Below are positions 27,001-63,000 of a stretch of 64,000 nucleotides of DNA, one piece after another. The stretch is from Cyanobacteria bacterium auto_48_18 (GTDB taxonomy: Bacteria; Cyanobacteriota; Vampirovibrionia; Obscuribacterales; Obscuribacteraceae). Within the stretch, counting starts at the first letter, position 1. The number at the start of each line of letters is the position of its first letter. Location: assembly GCA_036170915.1 (NCBI GenBank), contig JAVHQC010000004.1, positions 37,933 to 101,932 on the forward strand, read 5' to 3'. Made by a program: the position numbers.

Positions 27001-30000
27001 TCAGAGTCAGAGGCAAGCGCAGCTTACATCTTTCTTTATCAATATTCCCCTCATTCTATTGTCTGGCACAGTGGTGCCATTTGACACAATGCCCCAAGCC
27101 ATGCAAGCGGTGGCTATTTTCGACCCTCTGCGCTACTACACTCTGGTGGCCCGGGGTATCATTCTTAAAGGAGCGACTCTGGAGATGCTCTGGCCGGACA
27201 TCGCTCTTTTGGTGGTCTTTGCCATTCTGTTATTGTGGCTTAGTGCTAGCCGCTTCCGCCGTCAGCTGATTTAAAGGGTTCTTTTGTGGATAATTTTATG
27301 GAAGTGCCAATCAGCAATTTTCACAAGGTTGACGATGTTCTTTATCGAGGCGGACAGCCAAAGGAGCTGGGTCTGGTGGCGCTCAGTGAGATGAAAATCA
27401 AAAGCGTTGTGTCTTTACGTTGGCGCAAGCAGAGAATTGAAGCCGAACGCGCTCTGGTTGAAGGCTTAGGACTTAAGTTTTTCAGCATTCCCCTAAATTA
27501 TTGGACTTTGCCTAAGCAAAAGGATGTTAGGGCGCTTTTGGCAGTTGTTGACGATGAAGCTAATCAGCCTGTTTTTGTGCATTGTTTCCATGGGGCCGAT
27601 CGAACAGGCGTGCTGGTAGCAATGTACCGCATCTTGCGCAATGATTGGAGCCTGCAGGAGGCATACAAAGAGATGCGCGAATGCGGTCATCATCGTATCA
27701 GCACACACCATTTTAAATTAGCACTCTGGCGCCTGGCCCATGAAGCGGCAAAAACTGTGTAACCACATTTGGTGGCGCGGATATTTTGTGATTTAATGGA
27801 ACTAGTTATCAAGCTCAACGTCACTCGCTCAATAGTGAACAGAGGATCGGTTAATGGGCAGAATCAACGTAGCCACAAGCGCAAAACTAAACCTCACAGC
27901 TTTATGTTTGGGTGCTACCCTGGCCTTCTATCCGTCCATAGTTTCTGCTTTTTCCGTGGCCGTGTATGCTCCACCGATTAAGAACAACGGACCGCAGCCA
28001 AATCCAGTGGCCGTAAATAAGTCTCAGCTCGCGGCATTGAAAAACTATGATGTGATCGTCTTTATTGACGCAAGCAATTCAATGAAGGTTGGAGATTGTG
28101 ATCAAGGCCGCAGCACTCGCTGGCAGTGGTGTCAGCAGCAAACTACGGCACTGCGCAACACGTTAGGCACTTCGATGAATGGACATCTTAAGATAGTCGC
28201 CTTTAGCGATCATTTCAAAGTTTATCCAAATGTCGAAATGGACAGCATCCCAAGTTTTTTTGCCGAGCATAAACCTTCGGGCAGCACTGATACCACCCGC
28301 GCAATTAAAAGCCAGCTAAATCAGTATTTCGCCAGTCGCAAAGCCGACAAGACAACTAGGCCACTGCTAGTCGCAATGATTACCGACGGTTTGCCTGATA
28401 GACCCCAATCGCTCAGCGACGTTATTGTTCAGGCCACTCAGCAAATGGAAGATCCCAAAGAAATTGCCATTACCTTTTTGCAAGTAGGTACCGACAGCAA
28501 AGCGACAAAATATTTGCAAGAGCTCGATGAATGCCTCATTAGCCGAAAAGCTCGATACGACATCGTCACCACTAAAACCTATGACCAGCTAAGTGCTGGT
28601 CTGGCCAGTGCTCTGTTGCAGCTGGTTAGCCCCGAGACAGTTGCTTTGAAATAGTGTTCGCCGAAAGGCGGCTTGCTCTATCTGTTCTATCTACGTAATC
28701 GGCATCTTCAGTAAATGCGGTGAAACATAGTTGATCAATGCGCTTCGGCCAAGTGGCGGCTGATCTAGAAAAGCCGAGAGTAGTACTCCTTCTTTCCAGG
28801 TTTTTTGATCAACGCAATACCAAAAAATGGCCAAATAGAGCTGCAGGCATTTTCGAGAAACACCTTGAAAATATTTTCGAATGAAGGTGATGGCTGCGCC
28901 TATGATTTCAGAGGTCGGAGTCGATACTCCGCGCAAGATTGTGCCCGGCTCTTTTTGTACAGTTCTTATGTAGCGCCCACCAGGCATATCTTGAATTAAG
29001 CCATCCAGTGCCAGCATCACCACAGTGCTTCCCAAAATTCCTGCTGGTTGTCCCGTCATGTCACAAAGATCATCAATTGAAATTGGAGTGTCGCCTATAA
29101 ACTCGAGTACTTGTTTTTGCAAGGAACTGAGATTTGTTAGAGCGTCGCTTATAGGGAAGTTAGACATTTCCTGGGCCGCAGAACTGTCGCTGCTTTCTAA
29201 TGAGTCGTTTGCACTGTATTTTTCTGCCAACTCTTTTTCGACTTCATCTTGTTCTGCTTGAGGGTGCAATCGTGCCGGAGTTTCGCTACTACGCCTGAAT
29301 ATTATTTGCAGTAGTTCACCGCCAATCAGCACTGGTGCTGATTCATCAATGCTACCGGCAACAATCATGGCAGCTCTTAGTAGGCAGTTGCGCGCTGTGG
29401 CGAAAGCAACTTTAGCAATCTTTGAAAACCCCAACGCGCTTATTGCAATATTGTTTTCGGCAAAGTGAATTGCTCCCAGCCAGGCTTGAAGGCGGCTCAC
29501 GTCTTCAAAGGCTGTTCCTACAGTAAAGTAGGTTCGCAGTTTGCAGAGTCGGCAAATGAAAAAGCGCGACCCTTCGTGCCGATTTAGATTACTTGATCCG
29601 CAACAGCAGACTATTCGTCCTTTTGCTTCAAGAGCCTTAAAAATAGTGTCGGCCGCTGCATCGTCTGACGGTACCTTGCGGATAAAGAGCTTCCATTGGG
29701 CTTTCGCCACGCTGTATTTGTCGTTCCTCTCGTTTTTGCGTTTCACCATGAGTAAGTCCTCCATGTGTCAGGAAATATAACTCAGGAGATTGCAAACGGT
29801 TCAACTAATCGGCAAAAGTGCGCAAACATTTGGATTGTTTTGCTGTTTTTTCTAGTATTTAAAGACTTAGAATTTTACTGTAGTTGCTTTGCCAGTGGTT
29901 GGCTGGTTGGTAGTGTAAGGATTGGATTTTAGATTGATATCAATCTAGCTTTTAAGAGAATTGCAGATTGATATCAATCTGCAATTCTTTCCAGGCATCG

Positions 30001-60000: not shown

Positions 60001-63000
60001 CTTACCCCATATTCCTGACGATTCGGTGGGGCTGCCACCAAGTGCGTAGAGTGTGCCGGCAAGGGTATCTACCCGTTTTACGTGACAATCACGAGCAATT
60101 TCTAACTGCTGTATATCGTCTTCGTGGTGAAACGATTCTATTGCTTGATTGTAGGTCTCAACGGCAGACATTTCTGCGCAAAGAAGTTTTGTCAGGTCGC
60201 TGGTGGCCGTCATCCGGTATTCCTCACGTTGTTTAGTTTACTCTTTTCGAAAGAGCCTTCCGATGAAGGCGATTGCTTAGATCATTCAGTCTGCTCTCGA
60301 TCTTGTTAATATCGGCGTAACTAAGTCTGCCACCGTTTTTCATTCTCATTTTCTGCTCATTCTCGCGAATGCTTCTATTTTGGTTGCGTAAGTCATTTGC
60401 TTCGCGAAGTGTCAGTTCACCGCTGCGTTGAGCACGATTGATTTTCGCCAGAAGAGCGCTGTGCCGCTGGTCGATGGTCAGGCGATGCGACCGGGCATCT
60501 GCTGCATTAACGTTAACGCTGCTGAATGCAAGCGGCAGTATAAAAGATATGGCGAGAACAACGGGTCTGATTTTTCTCATTGAAATTTTCCTAGTTTGAC
60601 ATGTTACAGATTTATGAGTGCTTACACCTCGGCGAAGACGTCGGCACAGTGCGATAGTTCCAAAAAACATTTTGGAACAACCTGTTGGTGGGTTCCGTCA
60701 ATTGCCGCAGAAACAAAGACCCAATCAATGTGAAAAGCATGGAGAAGTGATGAAAGAAGTTGAAACTACCGTAGTACGGACTACTGATGGCGTTCCGGTA
60801 CGAGTTGAAGACACGTCGTCGAACTGGACTGTGGGCTTCTTGATACTGGCCGCGATTGCCCTTGTTATTGGTGCAGTCACTATGTACAACAATGGTGCTT
60901 CGACCAGTTTAAGACAACAAACAATTGAGTCGCAACAAACATCACTTCAGCAACAGCAAAGTGAGACCCAAAGATTGCAAGATATGACTGCTGCTCAACA
61001 AGCTTCTATGAATCAGATGCCCAAGTCAACGACTACTAATGTAGTTATAACTGACGGATTGAACGGCGGCGCCGGACCTGGTTCGAAAACAGTTGCTACA
61101 CCCCCCACGCTTCAGGTAATTGAGACCCATTCGCCAGCTCCAGCAGCCCCTCCTGCACCTGCGACACCTTCCGAACCCATTGAATCCACTACCGTTAATC
61201 CTTAACTAACTAATTCCTTTTTTCATAGTCCGGGTAAATAGTCTGGCAGTATCATTGATGCTGCCAGATTATTATTTGATGGTCTATTGAGTTGAGGGAA
61301 TATGGACGCAGTTATCGAAACGAAATTTGGTCAGAAAGCACTTCATGTTTGCAAAGACGGCAGCGCTGAGAACACCGATTGGATAGCAATTTATGAAGAG
61401 GCATTTCCGCCCGACCAGAGGCAAGACCTCGATGATCTCAAGGCACAGTTACAAGCGGGATCGATGGAGCTGGATGAAACCCGCGATCAAGATAACAATA
61501 TATTGTGCATGACCATTACTGAGGTTTTTCGCGATCCGCCAATGCTACCGACTTTTCTACTTGCCTGTTATACGGCAGTGGTGCCTGACATGAGGGGAAT
61601 CGGCATCGGTTCCATTCACCGCAGTAAACTAGATGCGCTGCTCGCTCAAGAATATCCAAACTTCATTGGCATCGTCAGCGAGATCGAGTCAACATTTGAA
61701 GAAGGAGTTTCTCCTGAAGCAATGCATATAAGAGTTAAACGCAAAGCTTTCTTTATGAAACTTGGGCTGGTGCCACTTGCCATTGACTATTATTTCCCTA
61801 GTTATGCCGCAGGTGAGAAGCCCATTCCAGGCGAACTTCTCTGGGTGCCGTTTAATGACACCGTAGTAGATAAAGACACGCTGGCCGGAGTGGTGACAAG
61901 AATTTATACAGAAGGCTACAGACTAGACAGCGGTGATCCTTTAATTGAAAAAGTAATTAAATCAATTAGGTAGTTTTTTCATATCAATCTTTTGGCGGGT
62001 AGCTTACTCCATGATGCATTTTCTTGCGGCAATGGCTCCGTGGCCTTTGTGCCACCTATTTCTATATCCAGCGCTAATCCGCCGCTATAAAAACTGCGGC
62101 GCGGTTGCAAGAATAGTGTGTTGCCATCGAATGTTTTGAACAAACCAAAGTTTGGATCGTTGATTGCTTCGTCGGGTTGAGCCGTGCCACGTGGGTCGAC
62201 CACTGTTAAATGTGTGCCCATGCGACCCTTACCTAGAGCAATAGCAACGTGTTCATCTCCGCCATATTCAGGTAGCTCGCACCAGTTGAGCGGATAGCCT
62301 GTAAGCGGCTGACCACAATGCTTTCCTCCTTTGGCAAGACTGAGATTTTTGACGTCGTTTCTAAATATTATTATCGGTGTAATTCCACCTTGCAGTGTTG
62401 TGTCGGCAATAGTTGAAAACTGATTTTCGGAGGTGACACTAATTGGAAATGGATCTTTGGCAATAATTCTTCTTGAGATACCACCATTGCGTTTAAATTC
62501 GTAAGCATAAATTTCAGCCGGTCCAGATTGAAAAGGTTCATCCAACATGGCTAGCACTGCGTCTAGTTTGGGCTGCGTGTGACCATTGCGCAACCAGTAA
62601 TAAAAATGTTCGGCGAATTGCTGTGCAGTGTTCGGCAAAACTTCCGGAAAGTTTTGCACCATTCTGGCTTCTTTGTCGGTAGGATAATCTCCGTCGGCCA
62701 CATCGTATGTGGTGACTTTGTTGTCGTGAAAAGTGCCGGCGTTTAAAAAATCTTTCCAGCAACGCAGGCCATGCACTCTGCCACCAGTAAAGCGCAAAGT
62801 AAGTAAGCCTTTGGGACCGTTGTCGGCCATAGAGTAAGGTTGGCCGCAGGCTGCACCGTAAATATTGCAGAGCTGATCTTCTTTGAATGGAATTTTGACG
62901 AGACCGAAATTGTCAATTTTCAGAACACATTCTATTTTCACTATTGAGCAGATGTGCTTTGTGTCTGCGGTACGAAAAGCTGATTGGCTTACAAGCGACG

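Follow-up and report, generated by a model that had tools for sequence, protein, structure and literature searches.

Which factor reads the GGAAC-N17-GTC promoters crowded into an island on contig C4, and how is that factor controlled? The island lies in the window, the whole 64-kb stretch of DNA analysed here, from an uncultured, non-photosynthetic cyanobacterial relative. To our knowledge, only a handful of sigma types (SigB, RpoS and EcfG) have been linked to general stress responses. The first-pass annotation of this DNA had proposed a single regulon of about 85 general stress genes centred on an orphan SigG paralog.

The window contains 22 exact matches to GGAAC-N17-GTC, compared with 1.23 ± 1.18 expected (100 shuffles, maximum 5). 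In the whole genome, GGAAC/GTC pairs numbered 123 at spacer 17 and 74 at spacer 18, against 36-59 at each other spacer from 10 to 25; 98 of the 123 spacer-17 sites are intergenic and 24 lie on contig C4. With gene starts from a separate gene calling (4128 genes), 89 spacer-17 sites and 29 spacer-18 sites were located within 200 bp of a start, compared with 2-13 for spacers 12-16 and 19-23. The signal of the earlier count (85, 24 and 1-7, respectively) was matched, over a slightly higher background. The sites keep a strict 17/18 spacing and a single orientation, mostly 20-60 bp before gene starts. The enrichment of GGAAC-N17/18-GTC is real, and one promoter motif is common to about 100 genes of this genome.

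Along the window, sites were located by motif scan and protein families assigned with Pfam. On the island, a site stands with a vWA-domain protein (27798..28654, plus strand), followed by sites with a small exported-looking protein (30840..31321, minus), an OtsA-like trehalose-6-phosphate synthase (31402..32800, minus), and a 94-aa ORF plus an OtsB-like trehalose phosphatase (32835..34038, plus). Beyond the orphan sigma gene, sites accompany a YflT-like general stress protein and CsbD (43102..43891, minus), a transglycosylase-associated protein of the GlsB/YeaQ type with two sites (43953..44506, minus), a DUF2383 protein with a glycogen-debranching-type hydrolase and a glycosyltransferase (46980..50729, minus), a hemerythrin with BON and zinc-finger proteins (50819..52196, plus), a Ser/Thr kinase ending in Ala-Ala (52216..53272, plus), two proteins without assigned family with a second YflT-like protein (53307..55259, plus), a single-domain receiver (55277..55744, plus), DNA ligase D with phosphoesterase, ligase and polymerase domains (55768..58673, minus), Ku (58691..59738, plus), and an ORF without assigned family with a DUF2383/ferritin-like protein (59785..60661, minus). 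Several small proteins of no known family are also among the site carriers, such as a 70-aa cysteine-containing ORF (39481..39766, plus) and, with spacer-18 sites, a 183-aa protein ending in Ala-Ala (42398..43009, minus), which gave neither a family match nor an Atlas match, and a 143-aa protein (46184..46680, plus); a further spacer-18 site accompanies a small protein without assigned family (60674..61205, plus). Outside the range first annotated, one site accompanies a 2894-aa GH94/glycoamylase protein of the cyclic glucan synthase type (9756..18543, plus), and four (18708 minus, 18787 plus, 20628 minus, 21923 plus) stand before DUF5670, an unassigned protein and an HlyD/ABC operon (18708..23010).

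Pfam/NCBIfam searches verified BON, DUF2383, hemerythrin, transglycosylase-associated, YflT, OtsA/OtsB, Ku, KGG, fasciclin, YtxH, CsbD and DUF5670 proteins among the site-bearing genes. These searches bore out the gene set first described (BON, DUF2383, KGG, transglycosylase-associated, trehalose, Ku, catalase, hemerythrin and fasciclin), in which the catalase is a 737-aa frame with its site about 110 bp upstream. Of two narrower claims, that for LigC stands for a LigC-type ligase with its own site on contig C13, while the ligase inside the window is a full LigD; and the site before ku, initially reported for 7 of 19 loci, was less frequent in a second sample: among the family's 30 top-scoring ku loci, 5 have it within 300 bp. 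The set is probably composite, consisting of an envelope part and general-stress genes (CsbD, BON, KGG, OtsAB, Ku/LigD and catalase), and its content fits a general stress regulon as a functional class.

A passage of PMC8155712 gives GGAAC/GTC as the predicted promoter of cyanobacterial SigG. Two SigG copies were found in this genome, both with the ECF architecture of sigma2 and sigma4 only (Pfam) and both closest to cyanobacterial SigG in a quick tree; the database names of the cyanobacterial ECFs are generic, and the label is taken from homology, single copy and promoter instead of a named record. One copy, the core SigG on contig C35, shares 50-56% identity with ECFs that cyanobacteria have in single copy and is followed by a zinc anti-sigma gene (zf-HC2 x3) and a CpxP-like gene. 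Upstream GGAAC/GTC sites with spacer 17 or 18 were present at 25 of 26 cyanobacterial sigG-type genes. In Vampirovibrionia, 41 of 43 core sigG genes contain a GGAAC/GTC site within their own sequence, before the anti-sigma gene, but none of 45 orphan copies does; this intragenic site was absent from the first-pass annotation. The core codons at this site are nearly fixed (CCG in 42/43 and GTC in 41/43, against 24% and 21% genome usage), whereas the same codons are less frequent in cyanobacterial sigG (CCG 6/26, GTC 8/26). Free variation is seen at the adjacent Arg and Thr codons. It is almost certain that the core SigG reads this promoter, and the original SigG-type reading of the motif is thus backed by both sets of sites. 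Since the site lies before cyanobacterial sigG-type genes and inside core sigG, both paralogs probably read it.

It is very improbable that another sigma factor (the ECFs on contigs C23 or C20, or a SigF/SigB-like factor) reads the motif, or that the motif arose by chance or is bound by a transcription factor. As the -35 element of ECF promoters, GGAAC is widespread, according to the sections of PMC7083833 covered, and the genome encodes 12 sigma70 proteins, with no sigma2 match beyond those 12. Against such a reader stand the association of the motif with sigG genes themselves across the phylum and its strict geometry. Moreover, neither SigB-type motifs nor the EcfG-type GGAAC-N16-CGTT motif stood before any of the 107 regulon genes, and no exact GGAAC/GTC site was found upstream of the C23 or C20 ECF genes.

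The second copy is the orphan in the window (g00188; 41390..42049, plus strand), a 219-aa ECF sigma (Pfam Sigma70_r2 and r4_2) with 50% identity to the core SigG. Regions 2.4 and 4.2 are nearly identical between the orphan and core paralogs. As first described, the orphan has no adjoining anti-sigma gene in the window and no GGAAC/GTC site upstream; nor did any of 56 orphan rows show an adjoining anti-sigma gene. The operons of the core and of the cyanobacterial sigma hold the sigma's own promoter type, which the orphan lacks, and the anti-sigma gene in the sapG position is present for the core and absent for the orphan. In quick trees, orphans diverge faster than cores, as would be expected if anti-sigma contact had been relaxed.

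A conserved putative control region upstream of the orphan (41129..41276, plus strand) carries inverted AACCCCTA / TAGGGGTT boxes (41129 and 41233), which show no change in any of the 9 same-genus loci aligned and resemble boxes upstream of orphans in other genera. TTGTGT-N17-AAGAAT (41248-41276), not listed by the consensus scan, may serve as a weak sigma70-like promoter, and a hairpin in the putative 5' leader (41325..41343, plus) received weak support from RNAalifold (8 loci; both partners are changed in 3 of 33 pairs). The genome encodes eight LuxR/GerE proteins. As a marker of a wider regulon the AACCCCTA box was rejected: only 6 of its 21 genome matches are intergenic, 2 of those at the orphan.

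To relate the orphan to the promoter set, 78 family genomes were compared, among which assemblies are incomplete and kin are not independent. The median site excess was 10.8 in 17 genomes with one SigG and 29.7 in 59 genomes with at least two (about 3-fold). CsbD was found in 53/59 of the latter versus 4/17 of the former, Ku in 43/59 versus 3/17, and a REC-Hpt protein in 38/59 versus 0/17. Counts of the plain motif across genomes, for which spacers 12-15 served as the control, proved too noisy in large genomes; a sharper pattern was used instead. Within one genus, a core-only genome (G142) has sites mainly before secreted-looking proteins, and an orphan-bearing one (G082) adds hemerythrin-, GlsB- and DUF2383-like genes. 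The pattern has exceptions: the per-Mb correlation at genus level is borderline (rho 0.35, p 0.056), three genomes (G086, G153 and G154) have extra SigG copies and no site excess, genus g2 has a BON-YflT-csbD-orphan-ku cluster without a site, and Ku is absent from 10 of 11 other same-genus genomes despite their large regulons. In the outlier G161, the contig breaks off right behind the kinase, at the expected position of the orphan.

These comparisons bear on the possibility that the core SigG, freed from its anti-sigma factor, drives the whole set, the orphan being a short-lived amplifier or a minor paralog travelling with the island. The core reads the motif, as its intragenic site and the cyanobacterial evidence suggest, and genome G033, with one SigG, still has a clear site excess (z 5.3), a CsbD and, upstream of a gene of the GlsB type, a site. 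In addition, the promoters of secreted and non-secreted targets showed no sequence difference, so that promoters are not assignable to one sigma; hierarchies of paralogous EcfG sigmas are also known (PMC7083833, parts covered). However, excess sites are few in most one-SigG genomes, from which CsbD, Ku and REC-Hpt are also missing, and the orphan has no SigG site, so its induction by the core is not obvious. The retention of an x-Ala C-terminus in 12 of 13 genera (see below) implies selected regulation of the orphan. We consider this explanation unlikely. The general-stress genes of the motif set appear instead to be switched on by the duplicated orphan, a link once drawn from position and now drawn also from the co-occurrence over 78 genomes; the SigG-type promoter and the general-stress content of the first reading find support as well. 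The assignment of all of the roughly 85 genes to one orphan-driven regulon is not supported, as the core almost certainly reads the promoter and a core-only genome keeps sites.

A control mechanism of the orphan that the first-pass annotation lacked is likely a C-terminal tag. An x-Ala end was found in 53 of 56 orphans (42/45 and 11/11 further), most commonly Ala-Ala, compared with 1 of 43 cores and 263 of 4128 proteins genome-wide. The window orphan (Ala-Ala codons at 42041..42046, plus strand) and each of the 11 same-genus rows have Ala-Ala as their last residues; so have 8 of the 107 regulon proteins, compared with 23 of the remaining 4021. The tmRNA tag ends in Val-Ala, and ClpX is present. 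Among cyanobacterial SigG proteins, 7 of 26 also end in Ala (Asp-Ala or Glu-Ala). By analogy with sigma-AntA (PMC7142297, parts covered), which likewise combines the lack of an anti-sigma gene with a conserved C-terminal Ala-Ala, the orphan end is a candidate ClpXP degron; Cys-Ala, Ser-Ala and Val-Ala ends are putative degrons at most. EcfP-like control by phosphorylation, prompted by the Ser/Thr kinase of the island, was rejected: the region 2.2 motif Ser also occurs in core copies and is not orphan-specific.

Upstream of the orphan lie a poly-HAMP/GAF hybrid histidine kinase with three receiver domains (34246..39477, plus strand; Pfam), preceded by a site (34070-34094) that is present in 10 of 10 same-genus loci checked, and a REC-Hpt phosphorelay protein adjoining the sigma gene (39993..40823, plus; Pfam), found only in genomes with at least two SigG copies. 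Alternatively, the orphan could drive the stress genes while being kept inactive chiefly by another protein acting in trans (REC-Hpt, a small regulon protein or the anti-sigma of the core), its tail only clearing free sigma. The core anti-sigma gene is under the same promoter type, which would allow feedback on both sigmas, REC-Hpt occurs only with orphans, and several small unassigned proteins carry the site. On the other hand, NepR (PF18557) was not found in this genome, which is 86% complete (a Caulobacter control was detected), nor was a clear RsbU/RsbV set, the matches being limited to a weak SpoIIE and a weak STAS of 111 aa; the faster divergence of the orphans would also suit a relaxed anti-sigma contact. 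A partner in trans as the main control seems improbable.

The explanation we favour, with a probability of roughly 60%, is a core envelope regulon to which a duplicated, protease-tagged orphan adds general-stress genes; this joint figure includes GGAAC-N17/18-GTC being the ancestral SigG-family promoter. In this model, the core SigG would read the motif for a small envelope regulon, and its intragenic site would raise anti-sigma expression as negative feedback. The gene would have been duplicated in Obscuribacteraceae, the window copy keeping the DNA-reading residues, losing its anti-sigma gene as well as the intragenic site, and carrying the C-terminal Ala-Ala protease tag. This orphan would drive the added general-stress genes. 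Its level would reflect both ClpXP turnover and synthesis, the latter from a promoter that is not of the SigG type and probably needs an activator. The poly-HAMP kinase and REC-Hpt relay may feed input to the orphan, with the site before the kinase gene providing feedback. More tentatively, the whole could be an independently evolved general-stress architecture, in which the anti-sigma of a duplicated envelope sigma was swapped for a tmRNA-like degron, control passes through a kinase/REC-Hpt phosphorelay, and the promoter code is shared with the parent, each sigma inducing the parent's anti-sigma through the intragenic promoter.

Searches for a general stress response in Melainabacteria again returned no literature; those combining Melainabacteria with extracytoplasmic function, or Obscuribacter with sigma factor, returned nothing relevant, and those on Vampirovibrionia/Obscuribacterales only general ECF work. 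The literature covered, which did not include the primary Nostoc SigG-SapG paper or the ECF classification supplements, yielded no general-stress regulon for SigG. In that literature the cyanobacterial SigG promoter had been a prediction, for which our data add comparative support, and the intragenic site is a clear example of a promoter that fixed synonymous codons maintain within a gene throughout a class. If our model is true, a general stress response has been built from a SigG envelope sigma in an uncultured sister group of cyanobacteria, with a predicted new wiring in which the inhibitor gene is lost and a protease tag takes its place.

Compared with known systems, the core copy resembles cyanobacterial SigG-SapG in its promoter and downstream anti-sigma gene. 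SigG is single-copy with an upstream self-promoter in the sampled cyanobacteria, whereas in Vampirovibrionia the self-site has shifted inside the gene, before the anti-sigma, and extra anti-sigma-less copies exist. SigB of Firmicutes and RpoS of Gammaproteobacteria have CsbD, YflT, YtxH, BON/OsmY, KatE and OtsAB among their output genes. These outputs are shared with the present set, while sigma class and promoter differ. ClpXP turnover limits RpoS as well (PMC10957080, parts covered). RpoS requires an adaptor for this, unlike the free C-terminal tag predicted for the orphan. The EcfG/NepR/PhyR system of alphaproteobacteria shares an ECF sigma, the GGAAC -35 element and a similar regulon size and gene content, the EcfG-type regulon of Sphingopyxis comprising 79 units, among them csbD, catalase, ku-ligD and envelope genes (PMC7083833, parts covered); it differs in having CGTT after 16 nt as -10 element, compared with GTC after 17-18 nt, no NepR found and a SigG descendant as sigma here. 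For PhyR, at which no search was specifically aimed, the 12 sigma70 proteins account for all sigma2 matches. The closest parallel in control, Streptomyces sigma-AntA (ECF282), is an orphan ECF with a C-terminal Ala-Ala, regulated by transcription and ClpXP (PMC7142297, PMC8999054), and the portion of PMC8999054 covered names it the only experimentally shown case. Different from sigma-AntA, which controls part of one antibiotic cluster, the orphan SigG belongs to another phylum and would serve a genome-wide stress set, with proteolysis predicted; it would be the second ECF sigma known under C-terminal degron control, within a response whose output genes are convergent and whose wiring is different.

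Exact GGAAC-N17-GTC occurs 22 times in the window against 1.23 expected. Across the whole genome, spacer 17 yields 123 matches and spacer 18 yields 74, compared with 36-59 at other spacers. Using gene starts that we called ourselves, 89 sites at spacer 17 and 29 at spacer 18 have a start codon no more than 200 bp away, versus 2-13 at each of spacers 12-16 and 19-23. Sites between genes point in the direction of the gene, usually 20-60 bp ahead of its start, and share a wider consensus of approximately GGAAC(T/C/A)(A/T)-N14-(C/A/G)GTC. The motif is a real feature, and these counts bear out the enrichment at spacer 17, then 18, claimed by the first-pass annotation.

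The genome encodes 12 sigma70 proteins, including two SigG-like ones: an orphan without an adjacent anti-sigma gene (g00188, window 41390-42049, forward strand) and a core copy on contig C35 with genes for a triple zinc-finger anti-sigma and a CpxP-like protein downstream. SigG-like matches were found in 133 of 151 genomes of the class, and extra copies are confined to the family Obscuribacteraceae. A passage of PMC8155712 predicts a GGAAC/GTC motif for SigG, and an excerpt of PMC2758279 describes a sigG promoter of RpoE-like type. In cyanobacterial homologue loci, GGAAC-N17/18-GTC lies directly upstream in 25/26 cases; these homologues lack an intragenic site and use the upstream position instead. 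Within the sigG coding sequence, the motif was present in 41/43 core copies across the class and in 0/45 orphan rows, and three additional copies in family f6 also lack it. In the genome under study it lies at C35:138367-138391 (locus L124:4200-4835), 160 bp ahead of the anti-sigma gene. The codons spelling it are fixed (CCG 42/43, GAA 42/43, GTC 41/43) and neighbouring codons vary; genome usage of CCG and GTC is 24% and 21%, and cyanobacteria carry them at those codons in 6/26 and 8/26 cases. A predicted intragenic promoter is thereby held in core sigG by fixed synonymous codons. Because of the cyanobacterial upstream sites and this fixed motif, core SigG very likely reads the GGAAC/GTC promoter, in line with its earlier assignment as SigG-type. 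Regions 2.4 and 4.2 are nearly alike in both copies, so the orphan should read it too.

We defined the regulon as the 107 first genes downstream of intergenic sites; the domain scan covered the window genes together with 47 proteins encoded in 20 retrieved regions. Members include BON, DUF2383, KGG, YflT, YtxH, GlsB-type and DUF5670 proteins, hemerythrins, fasciclin, OtsA/B, Ku, LigD, a LigC-type ligase and PolX. A 737-aa catalase has a site ~110 bp upstream. By a rough rule, 42/107 regulon proteins have a hydrophobic N-terminus versus 1030/4128 genome proteins; no distinguishing difference was seen between promoters of secreted and other targets. The site was previously placed before ku in 7/19 loci; this association is weaker here, with a site at just 5 of the 30 ku loci that scored best. 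For csbD, a site lies within 1 kb in 8/30 loci, plus 2 directly upstream.

Several individual genes are worth recording. A 2894-aa GH94/glycoamylase protein of cyclic glucan synthase type (window 9859-18543) also has this promoter, which would suit an osmotic function. A pair of related proteins of 65-70 aa without Pfam family (window 39554-39766; L117:550-747), each behind a site, share C-x-x-G-V-C-S-L-x-x-W-K-P. The interior of the site-rich island (window 28691-30820) encodes a DprA-winged-helix protein and a methyladenine glycosylase, and no target gene was called for a spacer-18 site at window 30062. In three genera a SigG-type site is found at a group 2 sigma70 gene (C16:120654-121750; L223; L298), one genome being core-SigG-only, a possible conserved sigma cascade.

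Among 78 family genomes, which are incomplete assemblies of non-independent relatives, a sharper motif pattern scored against off-spacer controls gave a median site excess of 10.8 for the 17 genomes with a single SigG, 29.7 for the 59 with at least two (G158, with one split copy, scored as two) and 5.6 for the two in which none was found. CsbD was present in 4/17 one-SigG versus 53/59 multi-SigG genomes, Ku in 3/17 versus 43/59, and a REC-Hpt neighbour in 0/17 versus 38/59 (32 candidates scored per genome). Over 30 genera, copy number and excess correlated at 0.53 (p 0.003), or 0.35 per Mb (p 0.056). In the sole strong one-SigG outlier, G161, the contig ends ~200 bp past the kinase gene, at the expected orphan position. 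In core-only G142, 30 of 33 sites were checked and 13 were intergenic with a downstream ORF, mostly secreted-looking, none of which we recognised as a general-stress gene; in orphan-bearing G082 of the same genus, 25 of 30 checked (46 in total) were such sites, including hemerythrin-, GlsB- and DUF2383-like genes. From this contrast, the copy-number co-occurrence and the N-terminus count, we therefore read the site-bearing set as composite. Of the single orphan-centred regulon proposed earlier, the tracking of stress genes with extra SigG copies is supported, but the unity of the set is not.

Other observations weigh against ownership by the orphan, among them the missing site at the orphan gene itself, the low share of ku and csbD loci with a site, and the likeness of the promoters of secreted and other targets. 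Three genomes (G086, G153, G154) have extra SigG copies and no site excess; G033, with a single SigG, nevertheless shows 17 excess sites and has some of the stress genes. No site was seen in the genus g2 cluster joining BON, YflT, CsbD, orphan and Ku. As separate observations, in the g2 cluster a long inverted repeat, GGAAACTTCCGCG...CGCGGAAGTTCC, is conserved immediately 5' of the BON RBS (L051 ~8000 in G002; L053, L100, L102), and no SigG was found at E 1e-30 in two genus g5 genomes of the family, G045 (96% complete) and G166 (91% complete), of which G166 still carries two CsbD and Ku, with no sites near csbD.

As the first-pass annotation stated, the orphan gene has no site of its own. A lone GGGAAC half-site upstream (AAAGTTCCC, window 41091-41099, reverse strand) is conserved in 9/9 same-genus loci, with no matching GTC in three loci read by eye. 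Inverted AACCCCTA/TAGGGGTT boxes ~100 bp apart (window 41129-41242) adjoin a weak putative sigma70-like promoter and leader hairpin, and the boxes are conserved over the 9 loci; spacing is equal in G061 (L049), and single similar boxes precede orphans of other genera. REC-Hpt genes (here window 39993-40823) adjoin orphans in several genera, and the poly-HAMP kinase gene (window 34246-39477) has a site in 10/10 same-genus loci; the two may form a relay that acts on the sigma. In a quick tree with a cyanobacterial root, all orphans except one long branch group with the core copies of the order (support 80), the window's orphan falling within a 12-row group (support 95); this grouping argues for duplication within Obscuribacterales as the orphan's origin. 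Relatives are labelled Obscuribacterales or Melainabacteria.

The orphan ends in x-Ala in 42/45 rows (Ala-Ala 24, Cys-Ala 8, Ser-Ala 6, Val-Ala 3, Ile-Ala 1), which are not independent, 11 coming from one genus and perhaps repeating genomes; by genus the count is 12/13. Such ends occur in 11/11 further anti-sigma-less copies, 1/43 cores and 263/4128 genome proteins. The tmRNA tag ends Ala-Val-Ala, ClpX is present, and Ala-Ala ends are enriched among regulon products (8/107 versus 23/4021 others). Four small uncharacterised regulon proteins have x-Ala or similar ends (C10:111642-111920, C34:56829-57101, C6:238215-238502, C29:345026-345244) and are candidate unstable regulators. According to an excerpt of PMC7142297, sigma-AntA, likewise an orphan ECF, is degraded by ClpXP via a C-terminal Ala-Ala; a passage of PMC8999054 terms it the only shown case, and the portion of PMC7826278 consulted mentions no cyanobacterial or Melainabacteria case. 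On this precedent, the orphan is probably controlled through its alanine tail.

By comparative sequence analysis, which forms the whole evidence base, we give the overall proposed mechanism a probability of about 0.6. A literature search, mostly covering papers available without subscription, found none describing this system. It resembles the EcfG system in output genes and -35 element (excerpt of PMC7083833) and differs in that NepR was not found in the genome and the EcfG motif was absent from all 107 upstream regions of regulon genes, as was the SigB motif. Judged by gene content, the system appears to work like a general stress response, and by the features tested it stands outside the EcfG and SigB systems.
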